Below, in pieces: positions 19,782-54,661 of a stretch of DNA of 64,000 bases; positions within the stretch are counted from its first letter, which is position 1, and each line of letters opens with the position of its first letter. A program made the translations under genes and the position numbers. The notes beneath the pieces are model-generated. The model was given only the letters and a program-made list of their open reading frames with translations. It did no database searches and had not been told where the DNA came from. This DNA is from a virus (Duplodnaviria > Caudoviricetes), in the IMG/VR virus record IMGVR_UViG_3300014205_000174; one strand, 5' to 3'.

Positions 19782-22700
19782 ATGGGCGTAACAAAGGCCA
19801 CTAAAAATAAACCGACCAGTAAAAAGCCTTCTGCCGCGAAGGCCGGTGTTGTATTGCCTGTACCGGCAACGCCAGCTCAATTGCGCCGTCGCTGGAATAA
19901 AAAAACTAGCCAGGTGGAAAAGCTGGCAAATAATATCCAAAGCCTGCGGTATAATCTCACTACTGATATGAAGAGTGATGACCAGAAGGTGTTTCTGACG
20001 GCTCTTTGTGTAAAGTGCATGGAGCTTACTGGTGAGCGTGTCGGCAATGACGAAAGCGCTGCTAATGGGCATAGGGGTATTACTGGATTGCTTAAATCCC
20101 AGGTAAAGGTAGAAGGTAATAAGGTTTCATTCCGGTATACCGGTAAGTCCGGGGTTAACCAGGATAAATCCGTAACGGATGAAAAACTCGCTGATGGCAT
20201 ACGTCGTGCGAAGGAAATATCCAAAGCGAAGTATCTTTTTTGTACAGATGACGGGTTTAAGATAAAGAATGACCGCGTCAACAGGTATCTGGCTGACTTT
20301 GAGATTACGGCAAAGGACTTGAGGGGCTTTTCTGCCAACCGCTGGCTGATACAGAAGTTAGTGGCCAATGATATCGCTGACGAGGAGAAGGACAGAAAAA
20401 AAGACTTCAATGCATTTGCAAAGGTTGTTGCTGCGAAAGTGGGCCACGGTACCGGCATGCTGAAAAACCAATACCTCATACCGGGGTTGGAAAAGGCGTA
20501 TGTAGAGGAAGGCAAAATAATAGACATCAAGGATATTGCCGGATATAAAAAAGGTGGTGGCGTTGAAAAGATGGAAAAGGGTGGTGTTGTGGCTAAAAAA
20601 GAATCCACTAAAAAACCAAGTCCCAGTGAACCTGCGGGAAAGACAATAAAATATTCCGAGTTTAAAGAAGATATCCAAACGTTTATATTTCAGTTCCTAG
20701 AGGATAGCGGGGCTCCGGATAAGATTCTCGATAACCTATACCGCGCAAGGTTTGTGGTTAAGCCGTATCCTATAAAAAATATTTCTCCGGAAGTAAATGA
20801 GGCGTCCCTGGATAAAGACCGGGGTGTACAACATGCGGCAAAGTTCAAAAAAGACAAGTACCAGCCGGTAATATTTTTCAACAACAAACTGATTGATGGC
20901 TTCCACAGGGCCTATTCTGAAAAACAAAAGGGTGCATCGGTTCTGTATGGTATCGAGCTGTCTGATGTTTTGCATGAAAAGAAGGCGGAGCTGAAGGCCG
21001 GCGGCCAGGTATCCAAGCCCGACCCATTTAACGAATGGTTTGCCGGCAGTAAAGTTGTCGATAGCAAGGGCCAGCCACTTATTGTTTATCATGGCACCGA
21101 TGCTGAAAATATTACAACATTCAATATTGATTTAGTTCGCGATAAATTTGGTTTCTGGTTTTCTGACGATAAGGAGTTCTCGGAAATGTTTGGCACTACA
21201 GCCATACCGGTATACCTGTGCATTAAAAACCCGCATGTAATAAGCAAAGAAAAATGGGACGATATCCGACGTGCGCATGCAAAAGATGCAGTGTGGTTTG
21301 CATCATGGCGTGACCAGTTAATATCCAAAGGTAAAGATGCGCTGATAATTGAAAGCAGCGATACGACCTTTGCTGGCACGAAAATACGTAATCCAGAAAT
21401 TTATGCGGTATTCCATCCAACGCAAATAAAGCTTGCTGACGGCTCCAATACCACATTTGACGGCAACAACCCAGACATTCGATTTGAGAAGGGCGGCCAT
21501 ATATATCGCAGTGTTGGCATGGAAGGTTACCTGGTGGGTAAAAGCAGGTGTCCATATATCGGCAAAGAAAAAGAAATTGATGCTTACGACACGGATATCC
21601 GTTGCTTCGTTTCCGAAACCAACGATACCTACCGGTTTATTTATGTTGTAAACAAAAAGAATGTTTCCGTTCTTCATATTCAAAAGGAAGGTGCTGACTG
21701 GGTAATCCGCAATGCATTTACCTTAGAGCATCACCGCAGACATGGGTATGGCCGGAGTCTTTACCTTGAGGCGCAGAAACATTTGCGCAGAGTTGTATTT
21801 TCGTCCAATTTGAGCCAGGAAGGCAAGGCATTTAAAGAAAATGTTACTCTAGAAATGCATATTGGTAATAATACGGAAATCGGTAGGATTGACGATGAAA
21901 CAGATACCCAGTTTCAGATAAAAGGAACGTGGTATGCAAAATGGATAATAAAGCCAGCGGCGGTCGCTGAAGATAATGAAGGTATACTTGTTCCGGATAA
22001 GATAAAGCCGACGATGATTATATCTGCATTTTCAAATGAGATGGATTGGGATAAGGTAGAGCGGTATGCTGATATTATGAAGGAAAGTGGTATGGAGCAT
22101 GGTTTCCCTGCTATATCTGGGTATCCTATTATTATTGATGAAAACGAAATTGGAGACCAGTTTCTTACCGGTGAGGAAGTGTCTGAACATCATGTTGGTC
22201 AGTTAGCGTGGAAGGTAACCAACGGCCATCATCGTTCTTTGGGGGCCATAAAGGCAGCTCTGCCATGGATTGACGTTGAGCTTGATTATAGTACGGTAAC
22301 TAACATGGAGCGCCATAAGCGCACAAACGGCAAGTACTACGAATCTGGCGGCATTACCGAAGATGATGAACCGAAGTCGACATTAGACCAGCTAAAAGAA
22401 GATGTTTCCGCTTGCAGGAACTTTGACATTTTCAGGGGCAGAATTGCCCTGCGCGAACCAGATGAGGTTAACGAGATAATGACTGTCCTTGGTCTTGAAA
22501 AAGCAACTACCAGGGAAATTGGTGATATTAATCTGAAAAAGCTGAAGGACTTTTATACTCAGGAAAAGCGCATAGTAAATGAGCGTCGTAAGATAAGGGG
22601 CAATGAGGCGGCAGCTATCCGCACTGAAAAAAATGTTGAGAATATCTTTGACCTTGCTAAAATATTAGGTGACGACATGGATAAGGCTGTACTGGATTAC

Positions 22701-28760: not shown

Positions 28761-28785
28761 AAAATAAACGTTGATACTTAGGTAA

Positions 28786-28801
28786 TGCAATTGGCGTGCC
28801 A
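28786..28801 (-). promoter_or_regulatory. sigma-54-type promoter
   Basis: Minus strand TGGCAC-GCCAA-TTGCA. Confidence 0.7.
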
Positions 28802-28845
28802 AACTTTGGCAATCCCGTAATATTATTGCCAAACTTTTAAAACAC

Positions 28846-28874
28846 AAAAGCCCCCCGGAATCCGTTGGGCTTTT
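28846..28874. terminator. bidirectional-type intrinsic terminator
   Basis: AAAAGCCC-CCCGGAATCCGTT-GGGCTTTT. Confidence 0.6.
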
Positions 28875-29707: not shown

Positions 29708-29714
29708 ATATTTG

Positions 29715-31380: not shown

Positions 31381-34300
31381 ATGGCGGATACAACCCTTAA
31401 GGAATTAACGGAGATTGTAGAAAATGATGGTAAAAGATTAGAAAAAAATCTTTCCATTGTAAGTGATGTTATTGTAAAGGAGGAGACTATCTATGACGGC
31501 ACCGATGCCGGAGAAGATGAATTTAAAGTGATACCCACGCCGAATTTTAGCGATGCAAAATCTGTAGGTACCGTGCTCCCTATCAACATGGTGAGCGAAA
31601 CGGTAAATAATCTTTCCCAGTTAGCCAACCAGTTTGACCTGGTAGACCATGTAAAGGAAAAACTAAATTACGCAAGCAGGATTGAGGTGATACGTATATT
31701 CTCCAGTGAGCAGGTGGACGCCATTGTGTTGGCTATCCGCCAGTTTGAGAAAGGGAATGCCTTTATCCTTGGTGATTCTGCCGGTATAGGTAAGGGCCGC
31801 GTTGTTGCGGGCATGCTTCGTTACGCATACCAGAACAAGCATATCCCTATATTCGTTACACATAAGCCATTCCTGTTTTCGGATATCTATCGCGACATTA
31901 AAAAAATAGGTGGTTTTGGCGCTGAGAAAGCTGGCAAAATCATTGAGCCGGTACCATTTATTTTAAATTCAGGCAATAAAGAAGAATGCATCATCAAGGA
32001 CTTTGATGGGCGGATAGTGGCGTCGCCACTAAGTAGCGGCATGACGCTTAAGGTGTGCGAAAGTCTCGAACTGCCGAAAAAAGGGAACCGTAAGTTTGAT
32101 TTCTGGTTTAACTGCGTGTTCATGACTTATTCGCAGTTGTCCAATATTCGCACAGATACAAAGCAGCGTTTCTTAGAAGCAATTATTTCTAATTCGGTAA
32201 TAACTTTCGATGAAAGCCATAATGCCGCAAGCACAAATGCCGCTTCGAAAGTGCTTTTGCGCTCACTCCCATTGATAGAACAGGCAAAGGGCGTATTATT
32301 CTCATCGGCCACCTATGCCAAGAACCCGGACGTTTTCCCGCTGTATGTTGCGCGCACATCACTGCGCTCTGCGGTGCCAGACCTCGCGGTTGTTTCTGAT
32401 GCCTTGAAGGTTGGCGGGGAGAATGTTTCTGAGTATATAGCTAGTGGTCTTGTGAAAGAAGGGCAGATGATACGCCGTGAGCGCAGTTTTGGCGACTGCG
32501 AAAAAGTTACTTTATACGTTGATGATGCAAACCAGCGTCCTTTTTACGATGAGGCCATAAGCTATTTTAAAGAGCTCCGTGACTTTTCGAAAAGCCAGTT
32601 TGCGCAGAGCGCTATACGGGCGGCTATTTACAGAAAATGCGACAGCATTGACAGGGAGATAGCCGACATGGAAGCATATAGGGCCTGTTTTGGTGGTAGC
32701 CAGGAAGAGCGTGACATTGCTCGCAGGAACTTCATTGGTGAAAATCGCGGCAAATACGTTCTGAAATACACTACAGACTCTATTACCCGGTATAAAATGT
32801 TCTTCAAGGAGAATTTATTTTATGCCATTAAGGCGAAATTTGCCGCAGATAAAATAATAGAGACGCTGAATAGCCCGGTACAATACACCAATGTGGACGG
32901 ACGTTCCTATACAGCCCCTAAAAAGCCAATTATTGCCATCCGCAATACGAATGAGAGCATATTCAACATGCTTGATTTCGAAGAGGGGTCAACAACCAAT
33001 AATGACTTTTCGGAGTATCTGCGTGCGATATTCAAAAAAATATTCGCAGGTGCATTTACGCTCAGAAAGGTTGATAATTACGTATTCGAGTCGAGGCCGG
33101 CATTGATTGAGCGCGGCATTGATATTGAGGAGTTGTTTGAAAAGTACGACTATGAAGTGCAGATGTCCGACTTTTCGGATAATGGCACAAGGGTACAGGC
33201 TATTCAAAGTCGCCTGAATGCCTATACGTCGCAGCTCCCCATGTCGTTTATTGATTACTTTAAGGACAGGATTAATACTGCCGAAAGGTCTTCTGTGTAT
33301 TTCAATGATGACGGTACCGCTAAATATGGCAACGCCAGCCCGTATTACCGGTTCAATGAGGCGACGGGCCGCAAGTCGATGCTGAAGCGGGAGGGGGATT
33401 CGTTCGTGTATACACGAAATGATAAAATGGCAAGCACTACCGATGCCTTCAGGGCCTATAATAACGGCACCACGGACGTGCTCATGATTAATGTGAGCGC
33501 ATCTACCGGTGGTTCGGCCCAGTCGAGCCCGGATGAGGGCGCTGACACAAGGCCAAGGGATATGTTTATTGTCCAGTTCGAACTGGATATCAATGTGGAG
33601 GTGCAGAAACGCGGTCGTATTAATAGGACGGGGCAATTAAATAACCCTACCTACACCTATGTAATCTCCAAAATACCGGTAGAATTAAGGACATACCTGA
33701 TGTTCCGCAGGAAACTGCGTAAGCTTGACGCCAATACCAGCGCTAACCAGTCCGCATCATCCGAACTGTCAGAAATACCTGACGCATATGGTAACCCGAT
33801 ACAGGACTTGTTTAATGTGTATGGGTTTGAGGTGTTCAAGAATGAATTCATCAATGAGCCTGGGTATGCGGATTATAAAGTAATATTCGACGAACTTATA
33901 GGCGAAGGCGCTATTGGTTCAGATAAAGAGGCCGAGGATTATATCGCCGAGGAAGTAGAGTTCAATATTGAGACATTCAATAAGTTTATCAGGGAACTGG
34001 AGTTATATCCTGCGGACTTCCAGGAAACATTCTTTGACGTAATGAATGTAAAGTACATTGATTACGTAGAGAAGCTAAAGCAGACCGGCGACTACCAACT
34101 GGAATTAGTAGCAAAAAACTACAAGGCCTCTCCGAAACAGCGGGTAGTAATCCGCCTTAACAGCGGCAGCACTATCTTCTCTATGCCTTTATTTCTCGAA
34201 GATGATTATACGCTGGAGGATACAAGGGCGTGGACTAAGGAGCGCGTGGAAACAAAAGTAAATGAGCTCGCCGGCGGAAAGCCATTTATGGAATTCCATA

Positions 34301-36048
34301 CGGAACTGCTAAGGGATTATAATGCGCGTTTCCAGCAATATAAAGCAGATACGATAGCCAATATACGCTCCGGCGCTCCGGTAAGAAGTGAATACGAGTC
34401 GCAGATTGAATACGATGAGGCTGTGGTGAAATTAGACCGCAGGGTGGCAATGACCATACAAGCCCTTGACACCCAGAAGGCGGACATGCTCAGCATGATG
34501 ATATACTTCACGCCTAAGCGTAAGGTGAGCTATGGCGGTAACCTCGGCATGTTTGTGGGGTATAAGATAAAAGAGGGTACCAATAAGTTTAAGTATTCCG
34601 CTGGCAGCATACAGTTTATATTCTGCTTCCTGAACAAGTACCCGGTACTGCACCTTAAACTATCTTCCGACCTGGAAGCGTTGACTGAAATACAAAATCA
34701 GTCCAACCAGGTATTTGCTGCGGGGGCTCCGAGAGAAACATGGGATGCTATTACAAGGTGGCGTCCGAATCCCGACAAGCGAACTGTACGTCGTTTCCTC
34801 AGCGGCAATGTGCTCAGTGCGATTGTAGAGGCCAATAAAAGAAAGCAGAAAAAAACAATCAAGAATTTTTCTCTTGTACGTTATACAAATATAGACAGTA
34901 GCATCTCTACGGCTATAGAGCTCAAGTATACGGTTGACCTAAGAGAGTCTGACCGTATACCGGAAAGCGCCACGCCTTTATCTGTGGCCTGTACGAACGA
35001 AAAGTTTATCGACTACATAAAATTAATGCCGATAACCTACGAGAATATGGCGGTTATTCCTGTTTGGGATGAAAATTTACGGGTTGTTCTTGTAAAGAAA
35101 ATGGAGAACGATACCTCCATGCTGTATATCAATGTTATCGGGTACATTTATAAGAATGAGCTGGTGAACTCAGCATCAAAAAATTACAACCCGGTATATG
35201 TAGACGCTACCCTTGAACGCACATACGCCAGTCATTTTGTGGATAGTGAGGGTAAGATAAAGGTAAACTACTTTCCCAAGGGGAAGATGGAGGCAATTGA
35301 AGGGCAGGGTCTGCAATGGGTTGAGAATACGGAGGGCAATAAGGGCGTGTACGTGAAGTCCTATGTTTTTGATTTGGAGAACGAAAGACATCTGGAGCGC
35401 CTGAAGAACTTCTTTACGGACGTGTATACCCGACACGAAATGACCTTTAACTTCCGTTCGAGCATCGACGACTATTATTTCATTGAATTGCAGTCTGATA
35501 CGTATAATCCTAATGACCAGGGCGCTGTAGCGGAGCGTTTTGAGGTGGGAGAGTATGAGTATAAATTCAGTAAAATGACTCCGGAAAGTGTTGTCAGGAG
35601 TATCCCCGGATTTGTACGCTCGGTGTCAAACGGGTTTAATGGCGGGGTAATCTTAAATAAACCATTGCCGCCTACTATGCTGCCATCATACAATCTTAAG
35701 CCATATGGCTTAACTAATGAAATGATGATTAACATGTTTTTGTCCGAGCTGAATATTACGGACAAGACAGAGTTCAGGCAGAATCTTAGGGAAATTGCTG
35801 GAAGGGGTAATGATTTCGAAACGGGGCAATATGCGGAAAGGTTTATCCGCACAAAATCGGTACCCATCGTATATTTCTTTGGCGACTTGCGCTCTTCCGA
35901 TTACGGCAAAATACTAAGTAATTATATCCTTGACCAGGATTATTCGACATTAGCTTTTGAGTCATCTGAGCAAAGAGGGGAGCTAAAGCCATTAAAAACA
36001 GCGCCGACATTTGAAGATGCTGAAAACTTTTTGATATATTTGCTGTAA
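31381..36048 (+). CDS. strawberry-notch family SF2 helicase (large polyvalent-type protein)
   Basis: FILGDSAGIGKGR, FMTYSQL, FDESHNA, FSSATYAK, MIRRERSF, EVQKRGRINRTGQ. Confidence 0.9.
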   Translation: MADTTLKELTEIVENDGKRLEKNLSIVSDVIVKEETIYDGTDAGEDEFKVIPTPNFSDAKSVGTVLPINMVSETVNNLSQLANQFDLVDHVKEKLNYASRIEVIRIFSSEQVDAIVLAIRQFEKGNAFILGDSAGIGKGRVVAGMLRYAYQNKHIPIFVTHKPFLFSDIYRDIKKIGGFGAEKAGKIIEPVPFILNSGNKEECIIKDFDGRIVASPLSSGMTLKVCESLELPKKGNRKFDFWFNCVFMTYSQLSNIRTDTKQRFLEAIISNSVITFDESHNAASTNAASKVLLRSLPLIEQAKGVLFSSATYAKNPDVFPLYVARTSLRSAVPDLAVVSDALKVGGENVSEYIASGLVKEGQMIRRERSFGDCEKVTLYVDDANQRPFYDEAISYFKELRDFSKSQFAQSAIRAAIYRKCDSIDREIADMEAYRACFGGSQEERDIARRNFIGENRGKYVLKYTTDSITRYKMFFKENLFYAIKAKFAADKIIETLNSPVQYTNVDGRSYTAPKKPIIAIRNTNESIFNMLDFEEGSTTNNDFSEYLRAIFKKIFAGAFTLRKVDNYVFESRPALIERGIDIEELFEKYDYEVQMSDFSDNGTRVQAIQSRLNAYTSQLPMSFIDYFKDRINTAERSSVYFNDDGTAKYGNASPYYRFNEATGRKSMLKREGDSFVYTRNDKMASTTDAFRAYNNGTTDVLMINVSASTGGSAQSSPDEGADTRPRDMFIVQFELDINVEVQKRGRINRTGQLNNPTYTYVISKIPVELRTYLMFRRKLRKLDANTSANQSASSELSEIPDAYGNPIQDLFNVYGFEVFKNEFINEPGYADYKVIFDELIGEGAIGSDKEAEDYIAEEVEFNIETFNKFIRELELYPADFQETFFDVMNVKYIDYVEKLKQTGDYQLELVAKNYKASPKQRVVIRLNSGSTIFSMPLFLEDDYTLEDTRAWTKERVETKVNELAGGKPFMEFHTELLRDYNARFQQYKADTIANIRSGAPVRSEYESQIEYDEAVVKLDRRVAMTIQALDTQKADMLSMMIYFTPKRKVSYGGNLGMFVGYKIKEGTNKFKYSAGSIQFIFCFLNKYPVLHLKLSSDLEALTEIQNQSNQVFAAGAPRETWDAITRWRPNPDKRTVRRFLSGNVLSAIVEANKRKQKKTIKNFSLVRYTNIDSSISTAIELKYTVDLRESDRIPESATPLSVACTNEKFIDYIKLMPITYENMAVIPVWDENLRVVLVKKMENDTSMLYINVIGYIYKNELVNSASKNYNPVYVDATLERTYASHFVDSEGKIKVNYFPKGKMEAIEGQGLQWVENTEGNKGVYVKSYVFDLENERHLERLKNFFTDVYTRHEMTFNFRSSIDDYYFIELQSDTYNPNDQGAVAERFEVGEYEYKFSKMTPESVVRSIPGFVRSVSNGFNGGVILNKPLPPTMLPSYNLKPYGLTNEMMINMFLSELNITDKTEFRQNLREIAGRGNDFETGQYAERFIRTKSVPIVYFFGDLRSSDYGKILSNYILDQDYSTLAFESSEQRGELKPLKTAPTFEDAENFLIYLL

Positions 36049-36089
36049 GTAATAATAGTAGTTAAAACTAAGTTTTTTATCACTGTCTT

Positions 36090-36602
36090 ATGGAGAACAG
36101 CACGAGATTTCTTATTGGTGTAGTTGGCGTAGGGACGCTCGGGTTCTTTATACACCCTTGGCTATTTCCCCGTACCGGTACTGCTACAAAGGATACGAAG
36201 ACTAGGCCGAGCGTAAAAAATCTTGTAAATAACATAAAGCAGGGCATCGGCCCCGACCAGGCGTACATCGATAGCGTAAAAGCGGAAAAACTTCAAATAA
36301 AAAAAGAATCCCAGCCGCCAATTACGAATGCCTACCAGTGGGACGCGCCTGAGAATGTCAAGGACTTGCCTTATTGGGGAGATGTTGCAAGTAAGGCGCT
36401 GGACAAAGAAAAAAAAACAGGTGAATTTTTGGCGTCTATTGGAGGGTTTAGCGGTAGTCAATACTATTACCCAAATGCAGAGCGAATACTCATGATAAAA
36501 TATGCTATCGAAAATGGGCTAATGGACAAACCAACAACACCTCCGACAGTGCAATACGCTTCGTTTACCGAAGATGAGCGCAGGTGGCAGGAATTTAGGT
36601 AA
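36090..36602 (+). CDS. N-terminally membrane-anchored protein
   Basis: FLIGVVGVGTLGFFIHPWLF TM segment. Confidence 0.7.
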   Translation: MENSTRFLIGVVGVGTLGFFIHPWLFPRTGTATKDTKTRPSVKNLVNNIKQGIGPDQAYIDSVKAEKLQIKKESQPPITNAYQWDAPENVKDLPYWGDVASKALDKEKKTGEFLASIGGFSGSQYYYPNAERILMIKYAIENGLMDKPTTPPTVQYASFTEDERRWQEFR

Positions 36603-36636
36603 TGCAGAACGATAAATAACGTAAAACTTTTTCAAT

Positions 36637-38901: not shown

Positions 38902-38930
38902 TTTCATTACCCATTACTAAACAACGATGA

Positions 38931-40253
38931 ATGGCCGCAGAATTAATTGGCTTTAGAGATAGTCCAAGGGCATATACGGATTATACAATACAGACCTTTC
39001 CTGACTGGCGGGCCTTGGATGCGTTTGCAAAGAAGATTGATGCGGTATATCCTGATTCTGTTGCCAAAGAAGCGAATGAGAATTATAAAAAAGCAGTAGA
39101 TAATTTGCTAATTAATGGCCAGAGCGGCACGAGCCGATTAAGTCGCGCGAATTTCGGTCTGTTTGGTAAAGCGCCCAATAGCTTTGATGATGGCATGAAG
39201 CGAGACCATTTCGTGTATTACGAGGAGTATAAAAAAATAAAAGAAGCGGTAGACAAGAAAATACGCGAAGAATTAGCAAAGTCGTCAGTAGCCGAGGCTA
39301 TGAAGCCAAGATTGGTTTTTAACGACCGTGAACTGGGTGAGTTTGTTTATGAGCGTGCGGCAATGTCACTGGTGCCCGAACTGTATTATTACTCTCCGTC
39401 TCAAAAAAGAGAGATAAACGCCAACGAGGAAAAGGTAATTCCCGTCGGTGACAAATACAAGCTGGAGGCCGACGGCAGCGAGGTGGTTTTTGTATTCAAA
39501 GTAGATTTGCCGGACGGTGGGATAGAATACGTGGAAGCTGATGGCGAAGAAAGTTTGCTGAGAGCCAATAGCCTTGGTATTATTAATGTCTCCAGCAATA
39601 ATAAAAAAGTGTACCTCTATAAGGAAAAGAAACCAAAGGTACACAATGCGATAAAAATCATAGTGGGCCTTACGGCAGGAGGATTTACCAACTGGGACAA
39701 TGATTTTTATACCGGTGTGGCCGCTGGGTGTGCACTTGAAATTTTAGAGAGCCTTGGTTATACAGTCCATATAGAAGTGGTGCTTGGTGGCGGAAGATGC
39801 CAGGGTTGCAGGGTAGGCAGTAGCCCAGGGCTTAATTTTCCAACTAAGTATGGCCGCAGGTTCTTTTCATTTGCCGCTAAAACATTTGACGACCCGGTAG
39901 ATATGGATGGCCTACTGTATACTATGTGCGACCCATCCTTTCACCGGATAAAATTTATACCGTATTTAAACTATTTCTATAGCTTGTACGGGGATGCGAT
40001 AGACACTGCCGCAAATCCAGCCATGACGTGGCACGGAATTGCGCAGGAAGACATGACCAACCCTATAGGTATGTATATCAAGCATCGTGACCATAAGGCC
40101 GGTAACGATAACCTGATACACTTTTACATACACCAGGTAAAAACAGAAGCTGACGTTATTGCTCAGATACTCGACCTTGTGCTGACGGCGGAAAATATTA
40201 ACATGACAGTACTTAAAAAAGCAGGTTCCCATGAGTTTGAAGAAGATGAATGA
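38931..40253 (+). CDS. probable vWA-like partner of the AAA+ ATPase
   Basis: Directly follows the AAA+ gene; IKIIVGLTAGG...GVAAGCALEILESLGYTVHIEV alpha/beta pattern. Confidence 0.55.
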   Translation: MAAELIGFRDSPRAYTDYTIQTFPDWRALDAFAKKIDAVYPDSVAKEANENYKKAVDNLLINGQSGTSRLSRANFGLFGKAPNSFDDGMKRDHFVYYEEYKKIKEAVDKKIREELAKSSVAEAMKPRLVFNDRELGEFVYERAAMSLVPELYYYSPSQKREINANEEKVIPVGDKYKLEADGSEVVFVFKVDLPDGGIEYVEADGEESLLRANSLGIINVSSNNKKVYLYKEKKPKVHNAIKIIVGLTAGGFTNWDNDFYTGVAAGCALEILESLGYTVHIEVVLGGGRCQGCRVGSSPGLNFPTKYGRRFFSFAAKTFDDPVDMDGLLYTMCDPSFHRIKFIPYLNYFYSLYGDAIDTAANPAMTWHGIAQEDMTNPIGMYIKHRDHKAGNDNLIHFYIHQVKTEADVIAQILDLVLTAENINMTVLKKAGSHEFEEDE

Positions 40254-45328: not shown

Positions 45329-47356
45329 ATGGATATCGCAAAAATAAATCAAGACATTGCTACGATAGAAAAAGCGCTAGGCAACCCAGCTCTTAATGAG
45401 GCTATGAAAAAAGCCCTTGGCAATAAGCTTGCGGCTTTGAAATCGCAGATTACCACGGCTGCTGAGGCTTCTGAAAAGAAAGAGGAAGCTGTACAGGATA
45501 AATCCGATGATGAGGAAAAAAAGCTGAGAGATGTAATAATGAAGATATGGAAGGGCCTGGAAAACAAACAGGTTCCGGAAGCTGCCAAGGGCGCACTTCG
45601 TAAGAAACTAAAAGACGCGGAGGCTCGTGTAATTGAAATTGAAAAAGAAAAGGAAGCTGCGGCTAAAGCTAAGGAGGACGCGGCCAAAGAAGTAAAAGAG
45701 GTAGTTAAAACAGTGGATGCCGCAATAGCTGATGTAAAAAAGGGTAAAACCGTAAAGAAGGGCTCGATAAAAAAAGCAGGGGAAAAGCTAAAGAAAGTAG
45801 CTGCCGGTAAAAAGGAAAGGACGCAAGCTGCTACTACGCATGAGAAAAAGTACAAAAAAGAAATCGATGAGCTACTAGCTTTCGTGAAGAATAATCCGAA
45901 GCTTAAGGTTGCGTATAAGGGCTATAGCAAAGATAGCCTGGAGCGTGACGCCAAGCGCCATGCTCTTCCTCCGGGCAAGCGCATATCTGAGTCTGGCAAT
46001 GTGTACTACGAGCGTCGTAGGAACCGTGTTGACCTGACTAAGCGTAAAAGATATCCTTTCTTTGAGGATGGTGGGGAGTTGAAGGAGCATACTGCTACTA
46101 TTCCAAATAACTATGTATTTGCAACTCCGGAAGAGGTGTGGGACGGGTGGAATCTGAAACAGCGCAAACACTTCATGGATGACCATAATTTAATCTTCGA
46201 GATACAAAAATTAGCAAATAAGTCATTTGCTAAAATATCAGCAACGGAATTAGCTGAAGGGGAAGGTTTTGTTGATAAGCTTACAGAGCATATAAAAAGA
46301 GGCCAGTACAAATCCGGCGGCAAGCTTAAGCAGGGCAACCCGCAGGGTGAGCATTACAGCCAGATGGCGGACAAAAAGAAAGACGCAAAGCCCGTTGGTT
46401 GGAGGTTTACCGAAGAGTTTATCAATAGCCGTGCAGGAAAACGCCTGAATCTTACTTCTTCCAGTAAGCCAACTGATGAGCAGATAGAAAAATACAAGGA
46501 TAAGGCCTGTGGCGATGGTCGTTGTGTTTACCAGGAAAAGAGGGCCGACCATAGCGATAAGAATGCGAAGCGTTATTTAGCAGATGGTGGTGTTGTTGGC
46601 GACGGGAAATGCACGTACAAAGCATTTTATAAGGGGAAAGAGATTGATGTAAAAGCAGATACCCAGTACGCTGCTCAGAAAACTGCTGCCACTCACTTTA
46701 AGGCTAAAAAAAGTTACGATGTGAATGTTGTAATAATGCACGATGGTGATAAAGAGGTGGTGCACTCTACTGCCGGGTTTAAAAAAGGCGGCAAGCTTAA
46801 GCAGGGCAACCCCCAGGGCGAGCACTACAGTCAACAGGCGGACAAAAAGAAAGACGCCAAGCCAGTTGGCTGGAGATTTACCGAAGAGTTTATCAATAGC
46901 CGTGCAGGAAAACGCCTGAATCTTACTTCTTCCAGTAAGCCCACCGAAGAACAGGTAGATAAATACAAGGATAAAGCTTGCGGTGACGGGCGTTGCGTTT
47001 ACCAGGAAGCAAGAGCTGACCATAGTGACAAAAATGCGAAGCGTCATTTAGCAGATGGTGGCGATATAGAACATGGTTATAAAAAAGGCGGTAAAATCAA
47101 GCAGGGTAGCCCGCAGGGTGAGCATTACACAGAAGGAGCTGATGCCGTTAAGCATTCAAAGCCTGTGGGCTGGCGCTTTACAAATAAGTTCCTGAAGACA
47201 CCTGCCGCAAAGCTAAGAAACCTTACTGCCCGCAGTGCGCCAACGAAGGCGGATATTGCAAAGTACAAGGACAGGACGTTTAAGGATGGGGCGCGTTATC
47301 TTTACCAGGAAGCACGTGCCGACCATAGTGACAAACAAAAGAAGTCTGGGTTATAA
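45329..47356 (+). CDS. basic modular GG-motif protein with three repeated modules (putative DNA-binding core protein)
   Basis: FEDGG, YKSGG, LADGG, FKKGG, LADGG, YKKGG; module KQGxPQGEHY...PVGWRF...YQExRADHSDK x3. Confidence 0.85.
   Translation: MDIAKINQDIATIEKALGNPALNEAMKKALGNKLAALKSQITTAAEASEKKEEAVQDKSDDEEKKLRDVIMKIWKGLENKQVPEAAKGALRKKLKDAEARVIEIEKEKEAAAKAKEDAAKEVKEVVKTVDAAIADVKKGKTVKKGSIKKAGEKLKKVAAGKKERTQAATTHEKKYKKEIDELLAFVKNNPKLKVAYKGYSKDSLERDAKRHALPPGKRISESGNVYYERRRNRVDLTKRKRYPFFEDGGELKEHTATIPNNYVFATPEEVWDGWNLKQRKHFMDDHNLIFEIQKLANKSFAKISATELAEGEGFVDKLTEHIKRGQYKSGGKLKQGNPQGEHYSQMADKKKDAKPVGWRFTEEFINSRAGKRLNLTSSSKPTDEQIEKYKDKACGDGRCVYQEKRADHSDKNAKRYLADGGVVGDGKCTYKAFYKGKEIDVKADTQYAAQKTAATHFKAKKSYDVNVVIMHDGDKEVVHSTAGFKKGGKLKQGNPQGEHYSQQADKKKDAKPVGWRFTEEFINSRAGKRLNLTSSSKPTEEQVDKYKDKACGDGRCVYQEARADHSDKNAKRHLADGGDIEHGYKKGGKIKQGSPQGEHYTEGADAVKHSKPVGWRFTNKFLKTPAAKLRNLTARSAPTKADIAKYKDRTFKDGARYLYQEARADHSDKQKKSGL
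46307..47356 (+). repeat. three intragenic ~280-bp module repeats
   Basis: Copies start at 46307, 46778 and 47078; the first two are nearly identical in DNA. Confidence 0.9.
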
Positions 47357-47398
47357 TTGTAGTTTCTGAGTTTAAGAATAAAAACAAACCAAAAAAAT

Positions 47399-47824: not shown

Positions 47825-47845
47825 AAATTTTAAATTATCTATAAC

Positions 47846-50800
47846 ATGACCACAACTATACGTACATATACCATAGCGGATTATCATAGCAACAACAGCG
47901 GACAACATTATGGTTGTTTTGATGTTGAATTGTCGTGGGATAAGAACGAGAAGTGGTGTGTGCGTGCCGGTGGGGACTTGGATAAGTATGCTCCTCTTTA
48001 TAAAAATACCCATAATAGGTCTATCAAAGACGCTCTGGCGATATATAAGCGCCAGGTGGCAAAGGCAAAAAAAGATTCGGGTAAAGAAGGTGAAGAGTGG
48101 ATGACGTCTCGCTATGATGAGTATGTCGAAGCTGATGCAAAAGATAATGCATCGTTAGCTGAAGGTGGTCAGGTAGGGCCTGCACCAGAGATGACCGAAG
48201 ACCAGCGCATAGCATCTATTATTATTCAGCAATTGGGTGGTCGCAACAGGCTGAATATAATGACAGGTGCATATAATTTCTATGCAGTAAAAAAAGGCGT
48301 TGCTTTCAGGATTAAAAACCAGAAGGCCAACTATATAAAAATAGTATTGGAGCCCACCGACCTATATGCCATTGAGATTGGCCGCATCAGGGGCAATACA
48401 TACAAGATAGTGTATGAACATAGCGGTATTTACAATGACCAGTTAAAAGGCATCATTGAGAAGTATACCGGTATGTACCTTTCTTTGAAGGATGGGGGCA
48501 GGATAGATGTAAATGACGATGACCATAATCAGGACTTGGAGCATTTGAAAAAAGAGGCTATTGCCAATGCAAAAAGGTACGGTCGCAATAAGGCATTTGC
48601 ATATCTTGTTCTTGTAGAAAAAGAATACGATGGGGTAAAGCCAACCCGTGTGGATATACAGTTAAAATCCGGGTTTGAATTAATGCCGCAATCTTATCGT
48701 GATGCTTTTGATATAATTTACGATACATCGGCTGAAAATGAAGAAAAAAAATCGGCACCAGCGGCACCATCTTCGTCAGAATCATTTAAGCCAACGGTTG
48801 GCCAGGTATTCCACAGTAATTCAAGTGGCAAGGATTTTGAAATTACCGACATTGATGAAGATGGCTGGATAACTACTTACCAGGTAGGGAAACCACACCA
48901 GATTCAGTACATGGATAAATCAAATACACCATCCTTCCTTATGTACATGAGAAGGGGCGCGTTTGAGTTGATTAATAAAGATGCAACCCCTATCAGCGAC
49001 AGTGACTACATTTGCCGCATAGGCAGTGAGATAGTAATTAAAAAGTTAGAATACGACAGGAATGTGAAAATGAAGCTTATGCAAATAATTCCTTTGAAAG
49101 AGGGGGGCATTGAGGCTGGCATGGGTAAATACACGTATAAATTTGTTGGTAGTAAGGACAGGGTGAAATACATTACTGAATCTGCATTGAGAGGGATGAT
49201 ATATGCTAATCAAATTGTTTTTATTAAACAATTAGAAGATGGCGGCCCTGTTGATATGACGGAGCGGGAGTTCCTTGATAAATATTTTGGGGTTAACGTT
49301 TTCCCCAAGGAGATTACCGACATGTTTGAAATTGAAAATAAATCCTCATCAAATAAAGATAAAGTAGCAGCGTACATTGATGACCTAAAGCAAAGGGGTT
49401 TTACGGTAAAAAAGAAATCGTACAGTGATTTTGTTTCTATCATGGGCGCAAAAAAGAAGATGGCTGCCGGCGGCCCTGTGTCTTCCATGGACGATGAGAT
49501 TTTAGATTACATCTTCCGTAATTACCCTGACAAGGAGTTTAATGACAAGGAATTCATTTCCATGATTCACGCTATATTCTCAACTAAAATAGAGAACAGC
49601 ACTATTTCTGATAAAGACATTCAGGCTGCAATGAACAGGTCTCTGGTTAGTAAGGCTAAGCAATATAAAACTGAGTTCGGGAAAACCGTGCTCGGGTTTG
49701 AGTCTATTAGCGCCAAGGGCTTTGAACAATACCAAGGCTGTCCGATTATTTATTTCTCTGAGCTGGTAGATATTTCAGATAGCTTTATGACCTGCTCAGG
49801 TATCTTATTTGAAGGCGAAATCGTAAATGGCAGCGAATGCTTTGATGATTGGTTTGCAAATGAAGAGGACGCATTAGATGTAGCCTATAAGATGGCCAAT
49901 GATGTACCGGTGTACGAGGGAGGCAATGAGCCGTATGCTGATGGCGGAGAATTGGAAAGGAAAGCTGCCGCTGTAAGAAAAGCAGTAGAAATTGCAGGAA
50001 TTGCTAATAGCAACAATATCCGCGCATCTAATCTGACATTGAAGCAGTATTCAGAAAAAATATTTGATGCGACTAAGATTGCATACCCCGTATCTGACCT
50101 TGCGCTTGCTTACGAGGCTATGAAGAGTACTGGCTATGCGGACGGCGGCCAGGTAACTGGTGCGGCTAAGGTTTTAGTGCAGGGGTATCCGTATTTCCTT
50201 AAAAAAATAGACAGCACGCATCTGTACGTGACCAACACGGAAAATGCTCCGGGTATGGCCTCTCATGTTGGCCAGTTCAAAGATGCAAAGGGTGACCAGG
50301 CTTTCTACAATGATATCAAGGATTGGCTTCAAGGTAAAATTGATATAGAGGGCCGGGAGTATGCGGATTTCTATGCTGATGGCGGCCAGGTTGATGGTGC
50401 CATTAAGGTTAGTATAGAAGGATATCCCTACTACCTTAAGAAAATAGACGTTACGCACCTGTTTGTATCTAATAACGAGCGCATGGAAGGCACTTGTTAT
50501 CATATAGGTCAGTTCAGGACGCAAAATGGTGACCAGACTTTCTATAATGATATCAAGGACTGGCTTAAAGGTAAAATCGATATAGCAGGAAGGGTATATG
50601 AGAAATTTTATGCTGATGGCGGTGAATTAGAAAGAAAGGCCGCCGCTATAAAAACTGCAATAGAAATAGCTGAAATTGCCAACAAAAATAATATCCGTGC
50701 ATCGCACCTTACATTGAAACAGTATTCGGAGAAAATATTTGATGCGACTAAGATTGCATACCCCATAGCAGACCTTGCGCTTGCTTATGAGGCTATGAAG

Positions 50801-53800
50801 AGTACGGGGTATAAGAATGGCGGAGAGCTTCCTGCCGGGGAATTTAAGAAAGCAGAAAAGGAGACGTTTGAAATATATGACGAAGAAAGTAAATTCGTAA
50901 GGGGCGAGAGTTTTTGGTTCGCATATAAAGAGCTTAATGACGGGAAAGATATTCTTTGTGTTAGTTACGGTAAGAATCTACCGGATGATTCACTTCCTCC
51001 ATATAGCTGTTCGGTTGATATTTGCCCACTACAGAATATCCTTAGTTACCAGAATGACGAAATTAAGACATTAGCTGACGCAGTTCGCCAGTTCTGGATA
51101 GAAATGATACCAACCGACAGGTTTACTATTTCTTATTTTAAAACACTGCAAGAAGCAAAGGAGTTTGCTGAAGACAAGATAAATATTAGCGAGGCGGTGG
51201 TATTAAGTAAGGAAGTAAAATGGATGAAGCCCGACAGCCTCGATTATATACTGTTTATACTCAATAATGGCTGGCTTATCAAAGGGGATTGCCAGGGTGG
51301 CGATAGTTTGTTGTTTAAGGTATACGAGCCGACTACCGGGCTTGACCAGCACGAGTCTGTTTCTGAGTTTATAATAGACGAAAAGAATACAATGATGGGC
51401 CTGGTTATCTCAAGAAAGAGTATGACAAGGCTTGAATCTATTCCGGAAGCCTATAAGTGCATATACTCTGCTCTTCCTGAATTGAAAGAAGTGGGCAATC
51501 AAACGCCATTTGGATTATTTGTTGAGCTGAAAGATATGTCGCCAGCTATGTTTGATGAGGCGGTAATTAATCAATACATGCTTGGCACAAAAGAGTCGTT
51601 AGACGCGAACTTCTGGTCTGATTTGGCTCATTTGTGGAAGACTAATAATCTTCGTTTTGAAAATAATAAATGGGTAAATACCGGCTTGTGGAGGACGGGT
51701 GCTTTTAAGGAAAGTAACACTAATCCTAAGACCGGTCATGAGTTAACCGATGTTGATGTAACTGTGATATGTAGTTTAGCAAATAGCTATAACGTCACAG
51801 TGGCTGATATCAAAACAAATAATCCTGATTTCACCACCTTTGAAATATATAACCAGAGAGGGAATAATTTCAAGGCGGGCGGGCAGATACCGGGACACTT
51901 TGCTTCCGGTAAAAATATGGAGGTGTTTGGGTATCAGACGCAAAATTTCGATATCAGCAAGGCGCTTTGTAATCTGTTTACAGATATAATAAACAACAGC
52001 TCTCATACTGAGCAGTGGTGTATTAAGCATGCTGCCATTGAATTTGATGATGTGCTGAGTATGGAGAAATATGTGGTTCGTACCGGTGAGGCTATACCTG
52101 GGGGCTTTAAGGAGGCTACAAAAGCTGCGCTTCTCGGCTGTAAATTATTACAAAAAGGAGGGTATGATGAAGTAGCTTCCACGACCATCATGTCCGACCA
52201 TCTGCTTGAAATTGCCCGTCGCCTTCCTAAACAATACCGTGACGGTGGGGTGGTAAAACAACATATTCTACAGATAGGCAATGATGCCGTTGCCCTTGAT
52301 GCCCTGATACATGGCGATAGCCAATTGGAAGACTGGGTACAGTCAAGGATAGCCCGCGCTGCTACAGATATGGGTGATGTGGTTAACTACCTCAACTATG
52401 AGCTTGACGGTGACGGCATCGGTGGTGATGGGAAAGAACCACATGTGGTCAAGTATATCGACCTTGATGGCTCCGATGACCAGGAGCCGAAAGAAATTAT
52501 CGTTGAGGCCGTAACGCCGCATGAGGCAAGGGAGATTGTGCAGGAAGAGCTTGGCGATGACGGTATTGTTACGGGGGCGGTTCTTATCGATGATGATTAC
52601 AAGGCCCCGGAAGCCGATATCCCGGCGGTAGCGGTATCGGAGCCTGCGCCACAGGAAATGATGGCCCGTGGTGGCCTGATTGAAAAGGAAACCGACTATG
52701 CACCGTATGTCATAGCAGAAGGCGTTGCCTTTACGCTGATGGATAAGCATTTTCCAGAAAGCAGAGACCAGCAGGCTGCGGAGTATGCGGAAGAAATGGC
52801 TGATTACCTGTATAAAACGGCCCAGAAGCAGTACAAAGATTCTAATGCAACGTTAAAGCATAGTATAGGCAAGGGGTCAAACATAGGCCGTGACCGTTTT
52901 TACGGTATAATGGAGGGCTGGGGTGAGCTGTATATGCTCAAGCACCCATTCACTCCCGTTAAGGCATCTGCATCCATGGCCCGTGGCGGAATGATTGAGA
53001 AGGAGACCGGATATTTCCCGGACGCATTGGCGTCATTAGTTGCCGATGAAATTGTTGACGATAAATTCCCGGATAGCGACCCAGGGGATGCGACTGCTTA
53101 TGCCGATGAAATGGCCGAACATCTTGTGACCACTGCGGAACTAATGTATAAAAACTCTAATTCTTCATTACGCAAGGCTATAGGTAGCGGTTCTGAAGAA
53201 GGCAGGGATAAGTTTGCCGCACTCATGAAGGTGTGGGCGGAGCTTTGGATGGTTGACCACCCGTTCGAGGAAACGGCGCTGGCGTATGCAAAGGGTGGCG
53301 AAGTACGCAATCTTAAGTTTGGCCGCGTGATGCATGAGTTTAAAGAAGGGAAACTAACTGACCGCTGGGGCAACAAGGTTACTGACCGTGGACAGGCCCT
53401 GGCTATTGCATATAGCTCTTCGTCTCCCAAGATGAAAGATGGCGGTGAAGTTAATGGTTGGGTCAAACAAAAGGAATGGCACGGCAATCCTTCATTAGGG
53501 TATGAAAGCTGGAAGAAGAATTTCAAAACGCCAGGCGGAAGAGCAGTGCCTGTTTATCTGTTTGGCAAAGAGGGTAAAGGCAAGAATACTATAATATATA
53601 CTCAAGATGAGCAAGGTAAAACAATTCCTAGCGGGAATACGTTTGATGCGCCCGACTGGAGTTATTGCGTATCTGCTGGGCCTAATAGCGACTATACTCA
53701 TTCCGGTGGGTTTTATCCTGAGACGCCTTCATTGCAGGAGGCTATGGATAAAATAGATGCGCTGGATAAAATAAAAAGGTTAATATACGAAAGCGGCGGC

Positions 53801-54661
53801 ACAATCGAGTTGGTGGAAAACACTTACGCTGACGGCACAAGGTCATACAAGCTTGGTGACAAATACAGCGAAGACTTCGATTATGATGGGCTTATGGCCA
53901 CTGGTTTATCCGCAGATGCAACATGGAGTATTGAAGATTTAAAACTCCTGCAAAATAGTTTTACCGATGTAAATTATCATAAGGAGGCAGCATTGGTTGG
54001 TTCGGTTATAAAGGCATTGGGAAGAGGAGGGAAGCCTGCGGCAAAAGCACATATTAAATATCTTCACGAAAAGCTGATAGATAATATTACTGACGGCGCT
54101 GACGACCAATTACAGGATGGTGATGAGGTTTACGAAGTGTCATTGGAAGCTGTCCCAAATCACGACTTTGGCCCGGAAGCTCACGAGAGTTCTGTGCGTA
54201 TTGCTAAGCATATGGTACCTGCAAAGAGCATAGATGACGCTGTGCGCATAGTTCATGCGTTTTGCGTGGACAATGACCTGGGCGGCGGCAATTTTATCAA
54301 TGCTAAGCTATATGTTGCTGGTGTTGAAATCGGACATATTTCATACAATGGGCGCGTGTGTGGCCTGAATGGTAAGCCTATGGTTTATGAAAAAGGTGGC
54401 GTATTGTCAGTAAGCAGTCTTCGTAGTAAAACAAAGGAGGAGCTTGCCCAGATGTACCAGGATAAGTTTGGACTTCCGGCTCTTCACCAAGATATAGGGA
54501 CGCTGATTGCGGCATTGCACTTTGAAAAGCGCATAAAGAACCTGACTGACGCGGAGCGTGAATTTGCTGCCGATATTGAAGAAAAAATTCAGGATGCGGA
54601 GGATGCTATTGTGAAAGAGAATGGCGGGACAGTTGGCAAAACAGACAGCATCGCTACATAA
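47846..54661 (+). CDS. giant modular GG-motif polyprotein (2271 aa)
   Basis: About 17 [FYML]xxGG motifs separating mostly 50-150 aa modules; duplicated modules bounded exactly by the motif. Confidence 0.85.
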   Translation: MTTTIRTYTIADYHSNNSGQHYGCFDVELSWDKNEKWCVRAGGDLDKYAPLYKNTHNRSIKDALAIYKRQVAKAKKDSGKEGEEWMTSRYDEYVEADAKDNASLAEGGQVGPAPEMTEDQRIASIIIQQLGGRNRLNIMTGAYNFYAVKKGVAFRIKNQKANYIKIVLEPTDLYAIEIGRIRGNTYKIVYEHSGIYNDQLKGIIEKYTGMYLSLKDGGRIDVNDDDHNQDLEHLKKEAIANAKRYGRNKAFAYLVLVEKEYDGVKPTRVDIQLKSGFELMPQSYRDAFDIIYDTSAENEEKKSAPAAPSSSESFKPTVGQVFHSNSSGKDFEITDIDEDGWITTYQVGKPHQIQYMDKSNTPSFLMYMRRGAFELINKDATPISDSDYICRIGSEIVIKKLEYDRNVKMKLMQIIPLKEGGIEAGMGKYTYKFVGSKDRVKYITESALRGMIYANQIVFIKQLEDGGPVDMTEREFLDKYFGVNVFPKEITDMFEIENKSSSNKDKVAAYIDDLKQRGFTVKKKSYSDFVSIMGAKKKMAAGGPVSSMDDEILDYIFRNYPDKEFNDKEFISMIHAIFSTKIENSTISDKDIQAAMNRSLVSKAKQYKTEFGKTVLGFESISAKGFEQYQGCPIIYFSELVDISDSFMTCSGILFEGEIVNGSECFDDWFANEEDALDVAYKMANDVPVYEGGNEPYADGGELERKAAAVRKAVEIAGIANSNNIRASNLTLKQYSEKIFDATKIAYPVSDLALAYEAMKSTGYADGGQVTGAAKVLVQGYPYFLKKIDSTHLYVTNTENAPGMASHVGQFKDAKGDQAFYNDIKDWLQGKIDIEGREYADFYADGGQVDGAIKVSIEGYPYYLKKIDVTHLFVSNNERMEGTCYHIGQFRTQNGDQTFYNDIKDWLKGKIDIAGRVYEKFYADGGELERKAAAIKTAIEIAEIANKNNIRASHLTLKQYSEKIFDATKIAYPIADLALAYEAMKSTGYKNGGELPAGEFKKAEKETFEIYDEESKFVRGESFWFAYKELNDGKDILCVSYGKNLPDDSLPPYSCSVDICPLQNILSYQNDEIKTLADAVRQFWIEMIPTDRFTISYFKTLQEAKEFAEDKINISEAVVLSKEVKWMKPDSLDYILFILNNGWLIKGDCQGGDSLLFKVYEPTTGLDQHESVSEFIIDEKNTMMGLVISRKSMTRLESIPEAYKCIYSALPELKEVGNQTPFGLFVELKDMSPAMFDEAVINQYMLGTKESLDANFWSDLAHLWKTNNLRFENNKWVNTGLWRTGAFKESNTNPKTGHELTDVDVTVICSLANSYNVTVADIKTNNPDFTTFEIYNQRGNNFKAGGQIPGHFASGKNMEVFGYQTQNFDISKALCNLFTDIINNSSHTEQWCIKHAAIEFDDVLSMEKYVVRTGEAIPGGFKEATKAALLGCKLLQKGGYDEVASTTIMSDHLLEIARRLPKQYRDGGVVKQHILQIGNDAVALDALIHGDSQLEDWVQSRIARAATDMGDVVNYLNYELDGDGIGGDGKEPHVVKYIDLDGSDDQEPKEIIVEAVTPHEAREIVQEELGDDGIVTGAVLIDDDYKAPEADIPAVAVSEPAPQEMMARGGLIEKETDYAPYVIAEGVAFTLMDKHFPESRDQQAAEYAEEMADYLYKTAQKQYKDSNATLKHSIGKGSNIGRDRFYGIMEGWGELYMLKHPFTPVKASASMARGGMIEKETGYFPDALASLVADEIVDDKFPDSDPGDATAYADEMAEHLVTTAELMYKNSNSSLRKAIGSGSEEGRDKFAALMKVWAELWMVDHPFEETALAYAKGGEVRNLKFGRVMHEFKEGKLTDRWGNKVTDRGQALAIAYSSSSPKMKDGGEVNGWVKQKEWHGNPSLGYESWKKNFKTPGGRAVPVYLFGKEGKGKNTIIYTQDEQGKTIPSGNTFDAPDWSYCVSAGPNSDYTHSGGFYPETPSLQEAMDKIDALDKIKRLIYESGGTIELVENTYADGTRSYKLGDKYSEDFDYDGLMATGLSADATWSIEDLKLLQNSFTDVNYHKEAALVGSVIKALGRGGKPAAKAHIKYLHEKLIDNITDGADDQLQDGDEVYEVSLEAVPNHDFGPEAHESSVRIAKHMVPAKSIDDAVRIVHAFCVDNDLGGGNFINAKLYVAGVEIGHISYNGRVCGLNGKPMVYEKGGVLSVSSLRSKTKEELAQMYQDKFGLPALHQDIGTLIAALHFEKRIKNLTDAEREFAADIEEKIQDAEDAIVKENGGTVGKTDSIAT
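49934..50809 (+). repeat. A-B-B'-A' module duplication (67, 79, 79, 67 aa)
   Basis: Units start at YADGG codons 49934, 50135, 50372 and 50609; next motif YKNGG at 50810. Confidence 0.9.
52661..53284 (+). repeat. tandem module duplication (105 and 103 aa)
   Basis: MARGGLIEKETDY (52661) and MARGGMIEKETGY (52976), ending at YAKGG 53285. Confidence 0.85.

Follow-up and report, generated by a model that had tools for sequence, protein, structure and literature searches.

How are the giant proteins of an uncultured phage put together when their parts are small and interchangeable, and does the place where two parts meet carry a meaning of its own? This question is raised by IMG/VR virus record IMGVR_UViG_3300014205_000174 (Caudoviricetes), of which a stretch of 64,000 nucleotides (nt), hereafter the window, was analysed; it is part of a 211,455-bp metagenomic contig with nearly all genes on the + strand. 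We read this contig as that of a large uncultured phage, and four of its open reading frames (ORFs, named by their first nucleotide), ORF19782, ORF24272, ORF45329 and ORF47846, as probable polyvalent-type effector arrays. A first-pass annotation, made from the letters alone, had noticed more than 30 copies of a hydrophobic-x-x-Gly-Gly motif in these four ORFs. The results presented here make it almost certain that this motif is a selected joint between modules. The joint probably serves for recognition or cutting, and cleavage at it is a possibility considered below.

A Gly-Gly motif is enriched in four giant proteins

The pattern [FYML]xxGG occurs 40 times in the four proteins together, where about 5.7 copies are expected (7-fold), which confirms the first observation. 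The excess is seen in each of them, with 7 copies in ORF19782 (1.3 expected from composition), 7 in ORF24272 (1.2), 6 in ORF45329 (0.5) and 20 in ORF47846 (2.7), and in 2000 residue shuffles per protein the observed count was never reached for any of the four. The strict form [FYML]xxGGx[VILM], in which a hydrophobic residue stands at +6 counted from the first hydrophobic residue, was found 6, 6, 6 and 17 times in the same order (35 in all) and only twice in the other 74 + strand ORFs of at least 50 amino acids (aa). The absence of a comparable run in the long helicase ORF31381 (1555 aa), also remarked on in the first pass, holds as well: it contains one loose and no strict copy against 0.9 expected, which is the level of chance. 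Counted ORF by ORF within the window, the enrichment is confined to the four giants and absent elsewhere. Chance as the origin of the motif is ruled out by the residue shuffles together with a control set of 158 classical giant phage proteins described below.

Some matches were not accepted as joints. In ORF19782, LIVGG (residue 1008) represents the glycine box with which the nucleotidyltransferase domain starts (Pfam), and three or four loose matches without a hydrophobic residue at +6 (ORF47846 residues 417, 1342 and 2058) are probably due to chance and are not kept in orthologues.

The motif delimits modules

ORF19782 (19782..24251, +; 1489 aa) is identified as a polyvalent protein by Pfam, PHROGs and NCBIfam. 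Its Pfam domains (Topoisom_I, ART-PolyVal (PF18760), PolyA_pol and HD) correspond to a topoisomerase IB at aa 40-226, ART-PolyVal at aa 427-559 and a CCA-adding nucleotidyltransferase with HD at aa 1008-1440, and judged by these domains it is a classical polyvalent protein. Its six joints, at aa 255, 264, 404, 568, 853 and 1458, all lie outside the Pfam domains. The earlier view that the motifs of this protein fall between its enzyme domains thus stands for these six and fails for LIVGG at 1008, which belongs to a domain itself. ORF24272 (24272..26773, +; 833 aa) is of no known family and has joints at aa 102, 203, 225, 310, 453, 551 and 641; its first two modules are partly alike.

To compare modules, the four proteins were cut at the joint, and the resulting 43 pieces were compared all with each other. 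In ORF45329 (45329..47356, +; 675 aa), whose six joints lie at aa 245, 327, 417, 484, 574 and 584, three repeat units of about 90 aa (aa 332-421, 489-578 and 589-675; 46322..47353, +) are each delimited by joints, and whole-unit alignment gave 93% identity between the first and second unit and 57% between the first and third. ORF47846 (47846..54661, +; 2271 aa) comprises about 20 modules with 20 loose and 17 strict joints. Within it, aa 702-993 (49949..50824, +) form an A-B-B'-A' set of 67, 79, 79 and 67 aa in which each unit ends in YADGG or YKNGG; aligned end to end, the outer units (702-768 and 927-993) are 84% and the inner units (769-847 and 848-926) 66% identical. A further pair of 105 and 103 aa (aa 1611-1818; 52676..53299, +) has MARGG before each member, and its members (1611-1715 and 1716-1818) are 45% identical from end to end. 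The A-B-B'-A' order and the unequal divergence of its units indicate at least two separate joint-bounded duplications. These end-to-end matches of the cut pieces agree with the boundaries first proposed for all three sets, which had been placed exactly at the motif.

Most modules are tiny and of no known family. Many have counterparts among free small phage proteins, for example phrog_9437 (98 aa) and, with weaker matches, DUF6496 and phrog_10182. The phrog_9437-like module of ORF47846 (aa 118-214; 48197..48487, +) is widespread, as described below.

Modules are exchanged at the joint in relatives

An excess of the motif was also found in orthologous and paralogous giant proteins of relatives. 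The ORF47846 homologues P0002-P0006 carry 13-24 joints each against 2-4 expected, and strict sites are kept in orthologues although their flanks are only 40% identical. The ORF45329 orthologue in locus L002 has 57% identity. Both ends of ORF47846 (aa 1-220 and 1981-2238) are conserved among orthologues, and the middle is variable; compared with P0002, ORF47846 has two additional modules (aa 219-467) placed exactly between two joints. P0005 (3429 aa) combines modules homologous to parts of ORF19782, ORF24272 and ORF47846, with the ART module and its neighbour in reversed order. When the endpoints of homology to relatives were collected, 28 of the 46 distinct endpoints lay at most 10 aa from a joint, compared with 7.0 ± 2.4 for random placement, and none of 5000 trials reached 28. 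Judged from these alignments, the joint is shown to be where modules are duplicated, inserted, lost and reordered, and the first-pass proposal of the motif as the unit of gene shuffling, with module boundaries in relatives falling at it, is borne out.

The reach of the system became apparent in a scan of 1.84 billion representatives with ORF47846 residues 1-1200, which gave 2485 matches (50% clustering). Nearly all of the best 150 of these match the module at aa 118-214, which has no fixed position in the proteins that contain it (105 to 2144 aa). Among the matches listed, 148 otherwise unrelated metagenomic proteins sharing this module contain 917 motifs where 131 are expected; in 122 of the 138 cases in which the module continues into more sequence, a joint starts within 0-4 residues of it, while nine proteins stop at or a few residues from the last Leu/Phe of the module. 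The joint is therefore a property of the junction rather than of the module.

The 158 classical LPD23/zincin giant proteins that served as control (IMG/VR and GTDB loci) contain 414 motifs against 298 expected, and this small excess indicates that the joint is specific to one viral assemblage rather than to large phage proteins generally. In IMG/VR, no close relatives of ORF47846 or ORF40573 (the LPD23/zincin gene discussed below) were found, and profile scans of IMG/VR and GTDB genomes gave nothing beyond distant LPD23/zincin domains. Pfam analysis of 34 motif-rich giants revealed the polyvalent-class domains DUF5661, RadC, NUDIX, Kinase-PolyVal, LPD11 and ART-PolyVal; no peptidase module was found inside the arrays of these 34 proteins other than a RadC-like JAB domain in two.

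A separate clade of motif-rich arrays ends in a fixed C-terminal [F/W]-N-Y-S-I-G-G-L, that is, in a joint one residue before the stop codon. The NYSIGGL ending is present in about 16 of 154 representatives, for example P0166, P0141, P0137 and P0202, and in two or three adjacent genes of locus L166 (9932-13803); it is absent from the clade of the window. In G001 (IMG/VR 3300036985_008365), a distantly related 67-kb fragment estimated to be 37% complete, six or seven consecutive genes (1-14905; 478-1232 aa) are all motif-rich (loci L173-L176). G001 and L166 share a conserved 261-aa HExxH protein (51% identity), which was considered as a relative of ORF40573 and has no detectable relationship to it.

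The joint is constrained as a peptide

A logo was built from 972 motif occurrences, taken from the window protein, its homologues and the 148 unrelated representatives, and gave the consensus (K)-[F/Y/M/L]-[A/E/K]-[K/D/N]-G-G-x-[V/I/T/L]. The information is restricted to seven residues and lies on both sides of Gly-Gly: position 0 is Phe (39%), Tyr (33%), Met (18%) or Leu (11%), Ala makes up 47% of +1, Lys, Asp or Asn stands at +2 before the two glycines, Val, Ile, Thr or Leu at +6, and Lys is weakly preferred at -1. In the proteins of the logo set, 60% of all GG dipeptides fall within the motif (19% expected), and the median spacing from motif to motif is 83 aa. Tandem empty joints occur, and Val/Ile at +6 is retained even where a further spacer of 8-12 residues comes next.

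These data also bear on an explanation at the level of nucleic acid, in which the joint would be a recombination signal for in-frame cassette exchange and the peptide a by-product. The recently duplicated units of ORF47846 do have about 14 nt in common across the joint (TATGCTGATGGCGG), as such a signal would predict. Against this, synonymous alternatives are used at every position of the 39 window joints, Tyr, Phe, Lys and Ala each being encoded in more than one way, glycine codons occur at background frequencies, and orthologous joints keep the pattern while differing in sequence. Since codons vary freely and glycine codons are at background, selection acts on the peptide and not on DNA; a DNA-level signal is nearly excluded, and we consider it highly improbable. 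The sequence evidence supports the joint as a clade-wide feature selected at the peptide level.

The linkers between modules are short, since hydropathy falls only within about 8 residues of the motif. An AlphaFold2 model of ORF47846 residues 1-560 is poor overall because the alignment is shallow (mean predicted local distance difference test score, pLDDT, 55); the sole module in it with many homologues, aa 118-208, is predicted with a pLDDT of 95-98, and its fold has no significant match in the PDB by Foldseek. The joints flanking this module (104-110 and 214-220) lie outside the fold, in coil or low-confidence stretches. The proposed check by AlphaFold that the motifs lie in linkers thus came out positive around one confidently predicted module, and as far as the model goes the joint is shown to sit in short, exposed, hydrophilic linkers.

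Such linkers could also suit giants that are never cut and act intact as beads on a string. The heptapeptide would then be a minimal connector (a hydrophobic cap, a Gly-Gly turn and a second cap) which lets neighbouring domains fold independently, or unfold and refold on passing a narrow channel, and it would be retained since any recombination break elsewhere destroys a domain. The very short linkers speak for this explanation, as do the first hydrophobic residue, which often closes the core of the preceding module, and Val/Ile at +6, with which the helix of the next module often begins; polyvalent proteins such as the N4 virion RNA polymerase are, moreover, delivered uncut (PMC5512222). An uncut hinge leaves unexplained the preferences at the x positions (Ala in 47% at +1, Lys/Asp/Asn at +2, Lys at -1), the retention of Val/Ile at +6 before spacers of 8-12 residues and the tandem empty joints, and other large multidomain phage proteins manage without the motif. 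We regard the hinge as a serious possibility, although it is not the one to which we incline.

Comparison with known Gly-Gly systems and search for a protease

The first-pass annotation had compared the motif with the Gly-Gly sites of adenovirus and African swine fever virus (ASFV) core polyproteins. The adenovirus protease adenain has the consensus (M/I/L)-x-G-G-x, with the cut after the second Gly and the hydrophobic residue at P4; the ASFV polyprotein has many Gly-Gly sites, and polyubiquitin is a head-to-tail chain of units ending in GG. Like the sites of adenain, ASFV pS273R, ubiquitin-like proteases and double-glycine leaders, the joint has a hydrophobic residue a few positions before Gly-Gly. 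In the 972-site logo, however, this residue lies three positions before the first Gly and hence at P5, not P4, and in contrast to adenain-type sites there is an added requirement at P2', two residues after GG. Unlike double-glycine leaders processed by C39 peptidases, the window motifs are internal and repeated and not N-terminal leaders.

No Ulp1/adenain-like (CE-clan) protease was found in the window by Pfam (34 of 35 ORFs of at least 150 aa, in 64 kb of the 211-kb contig), and a crude scan of the window for the His-Asp/Glu-Gln-Cys catalytic pattern found none. Pfam scans likewise gave no C39, M23 or JAB peptidase in the window. With no such protease found in these scans and the hydrophobic residue one position further from Gly-Gly, the adenovirus/ASFV analogy is not supported in its details; the sole protease-like gene that the search of the 64-kb window brought up is the zincin ORF40573.

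A conserved double zincin accompanies the arrays

ORF40573 (40573..42708, +; 711 aa) contains an LPD23 domain (Pfam PF18838) and two zincin-like HExxH sites, at aa 367-371 (nt 41671-41685) and aa 614-618 (nt 42412-42426). More than 110 full-length homologues exist, on contigs of up to 200 kb, and in all 91 aligned homologues H367, E368 and H371 as well as H602, H614, E615, H618 and D622 are invariant. In the phage-type polyvalent zincin, a His on strand 2 is conserved and HExxH is followed by an Asp (PMC5512222); judged by its residues (H602 and H614-E-x-x-H618-x-x-x-D622) the second site fits this description.

The AlphaFold2 model of ORF40573 (pLDDT 82, predicted TM-score 0.75) places each HExxH helix after a small beta-sheet (strands 323-355 then helix 361-377; strands 590-603 then helix 610-626). 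Foldseek against the PDB gave nothing at E <= 0.001, and no PDB chain matched by sequence. In an all-against-all structure search (VIA-align), the top ranks were held by anthrax lethal factor (Z 7.2), its N-terminal zincin-like domain, PPEP-2 (Z 6.2) and PPEP-3 (Z 5.5); these Z scores are suggestive and lie below the level that proves kinship. A search of the ESM Atlas returned LPD23 clusters, of which some also contain MuF_C or ART-PolyVal, as well as ATLF/M90 clusters with TM 0.54-0.55 by target. Lethal factor and the Pro-Pro endopeptidases (PPEPs) cleave proteins at extended linear motifs, which they recognise in disordered segments. ORF40573 resembles these M34-type zincins, its best structural matches, in having HExxH, and differs from them in its two sites and its LPD23 domain. 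Directly after the first HExxH helix, residues 379-384 (41707-41724) read F-A-T-G-G-N and themselves match the joint pattern F-A-x-G-G; G382, G383 and N384 are invariant and A380 is present in at least 90% of the 91 homologues. This match could be a coincidence, an active-site loop or a pseudo-substrate.

The gene lies in a conserved block between the two pairs of giant genes, with the order Strawberry-notch (Sbno)-like helicase, AAA_5 ATPase, DUF7192-like protein, a protein of about 100 aa, ORF40573 and a protein of about 560-620 aa, and this order is kept down to about 40% identity in loci L003, L004 and L165. In the window, the upstream neighbours (31381..40253, +) follow it with the Strawberry-notch-like SNF2 helicase ORF31381 (AAA_34/Helicase_C_4; 31381-36048, +), the MoxR-type AAA_5 ATPase (36637-38901, +) and the DUF7192-like protein of 440 aa (38931-40253, +); a 170-aa ORF (+) stands between helicase and ATPase, and the protein of about 100 aa is present in relatives and was not called here. 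Downstream, ORF42708 (42708..44570, +; 620 aa) has a conserved C-terminal part, and its N-terminal half is a long Gly/Glu/Gln-rich low-complexity region around a short SH3-like segment (weak MSSS match); the proteins of 566 and 552 aa at its position in L003 and L004 were matched by position and size alone. The ATPase has 754 aa in the window compared with 401-430 aa in relatives, and the LAGLIDADG homing endonuclease (aa 316-383) and C-terminal splicing motif (aa 438-461) in it indicate an intein. Motif-rich genes flank the block on both sides in L003 and L004 and lie upstream in L165, whose locus ends inside the zincin gene.

This synteny could also be read in terms of binding: the joint would be a docking tag, a short linear motif bound repeatedly by a viral reader that loads, threads or anchors the arrays in the particle, with or without later cutting. 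This reader could be a component of the capsid or portal, or the MoxR-type AAA+ ATPase acting together with the DUF7192-like protein. The AAA_5/DUF7192/LPD23 block always adjoins motif-rich genes, LPD23 relatives are annotated as structural or co-occur with MuF_C, and the arrays of the separate clade end in the fixed NYSIGGL. Docking has a putative binding partner only, however, twenty copies per protein exceed what a targeting signal needs, and the C-terminal signature is missing from the clade of the window, so that we think a docking tag unlikely.

Is the joint cut?

Several known systems combine many parts in one carrier or many sites in one substrate. MARTX proteins, secreted bacterial toxins, consist of a carrier with a strain-variable string of effector domains whose short linkers are cut sites, processed after Leu by an inositol-phosphate-activated cysteine protease domain. 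The arrays are similar in having a carrier with a variable domain string and short linkers; no MARTX-type cysteine protease domain was found in them. In phiKZ-like jumbo phages and T4, one viral protease cuts packaged head-internal proteins at many copies of one short motif; these motifs, which have Glu as their last residue, are found in capsid and scaffold proteins too, whereas the window motif is restricted to modular arrays.

Closest to the arrays are the polyvalent proteins, a known class of phages and conjugative elements described by Iyer, Burroughs, Anand, de Souza and Aravind in 2017 (PMC5512222), for which delivery with the DNA and processing by zincin peptidases were predicted. Shared with them is the combination of unrelated enzymes in a giant protein (in ORF19782 a topoisomerase IB, ART-PolyVal and a nucleotidyltransferase), and the arrays occur with LPD23/zincin and SNF2-type helicase genes, while motif-rich relatives carry Kinase-PolyVal, RadC, NUDIX and LPD11. 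The arrays differ in that the zincin of the window clade is a separate, invariant gene and not a domain of the array, and in that the joint is absent from the classical members sampled (the 158-protein control). A text search of PMC5512222 found no mention of a conserved joint peptide, and no description of the joint was found in the searchable literature.

Our tentative preference, held at somewhat less than even confidence, is that the joint is a site cut by a sequence-specific endopeptidase. In this model, small, independently folding domains and enzymes would be chained by a dedicated seven-residue joint, which the endopeptidase would recognise, and the modules would be separated during virion maturation or after delivery into the host. 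From the sequences we infer that the arrays may be packaged in the virion and delivered. One carrier gene could thereby deliver many small effectors, much as the MARTX cysteine protease domain frees effector domains. ORF40573 is the candidate that best fits the role of the cutter. Cleavage is favoured because the recognised residues lie before and after Gly-Gly and there are preferences at the x positions, because the +6 residue is kept even before a spacer and tandem empty joints exist, because the same modules work as free proteins elsewhere and their partition into genes is fluid, and because a conserved peptidase of a type that cuts linear motifs is a constant neighbour. It is in keeping with the zincin processing predicted by Iyer et al. 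2017 (PMC5512222).

Several points weigh against cleavage. The proposed cut has no observed product. Classical LPD23/zincin giants show almost no excess of the motif (414 vs 298 in 158 proteins), so that the motif cannot be expected wherever such a peptidase occurs, and several zincin-bearing polyvalent proteins, among them the N4 virion RNA polymerase, ArdC and TraC1, are transferred uncut (PMC5512222). In the 67-kb fragment G001 no homologue of ORF40573 was found, only the unrelated conserved 261-aa HExxH protein, and the other clade's motif one residue before the stop (...YSIGGL) is no less compatible with a tag than with a cut site.

The most complete form of the proposal goes further and is correspondingly more doubtful: a cassette-and-joint system in which a large group of uncultured phages would encode small proteins for host takeover and counter-defence as arrays joined by a universal heptapeptide, cut by a lethal-factor/PPEP-like zincin, possibly with the adjacent AAA+ ATPase, so that dozens of effectors are freed.

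Genomic context of the arrays

A phage origin of the arrays is indicated by PHROG matches, homing endonucleases, the intein, co-directional genes and viral look-alike clusters; ESM Atlas look-alike clusters of window proteins are 81-98% viral. Besides the helicase and the intein-split ATPase, the recognisable genes of the window include two TnpB genes, glycosyltransferases, an HNH endonuclease, a GH73 glucosaminidase and a Zot/FtsK/A32-like ATPase. No capsid, portal or terminase gene was recognised within the 64-kb window. TAnnTTTG promoter words are in weak excess only (34 vs 19.5), and no host call was made from them.

The two TnpB genes are of IS605 type (2229-3428, + and 54732-56072, +; HTH_OrfB_IS605, OrfB_IS605 and Cas12f1-like TNB). 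The second directly follows ORF47846, and the relative L003 also has a TnpB inside the conserved block. At 62102-62989 (+), a 295-aa Zot/FtsK/Pox_A32-like P-loop ATPase (ESM Atlas, TM 0.84-0.87) shares 27% identity with an ORF from G001, the distant motif-rich record, and is relevant to the idea of a tailless virus with a putative A32-type packaging ATPase. A 74-aa ORF at 9008-9232 (+) starts with M-S-K-G-G-V-I, a joint at the extreme N-terminus, and has no homologue among the proteins fetched.

Implications

The class to which the arrays belong, polyvalent proteins with predicted zincin processing, is known. This analysis adds the finding that an invariant double zincin is syntenic with the arrays across the clade, statistics on the junctions around a widespread module, a negative control and evidence that selection acts on the peptide and not on the DNA. 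One module family alone accounts for 2485 matches (50% clustering).

Should cleavage never take place, the joint is still a natural, widely reused connector at which cassettes are exchanged in frame during evolution. Such a connector can serve as a design rule for multi-domain fusions, and it helps annotation, as all repeats described here came to light once the proteins were divided at it. Should the joint prove to be a processing site, the giant hypothetical proteins of uncultured phages could be divided into their real functional units with the help of a single short peptide. Its recognition would then represent a new pair of sequence-specific viral protease and substrate, would explain how many small effectors can be delivered with one packaging signal, and would make these arrays the equivalent, in DNA phages, of MARTX toxins and of the polyproteins of RNA viruses, with a natural standard for the in-frame exchange of modules.

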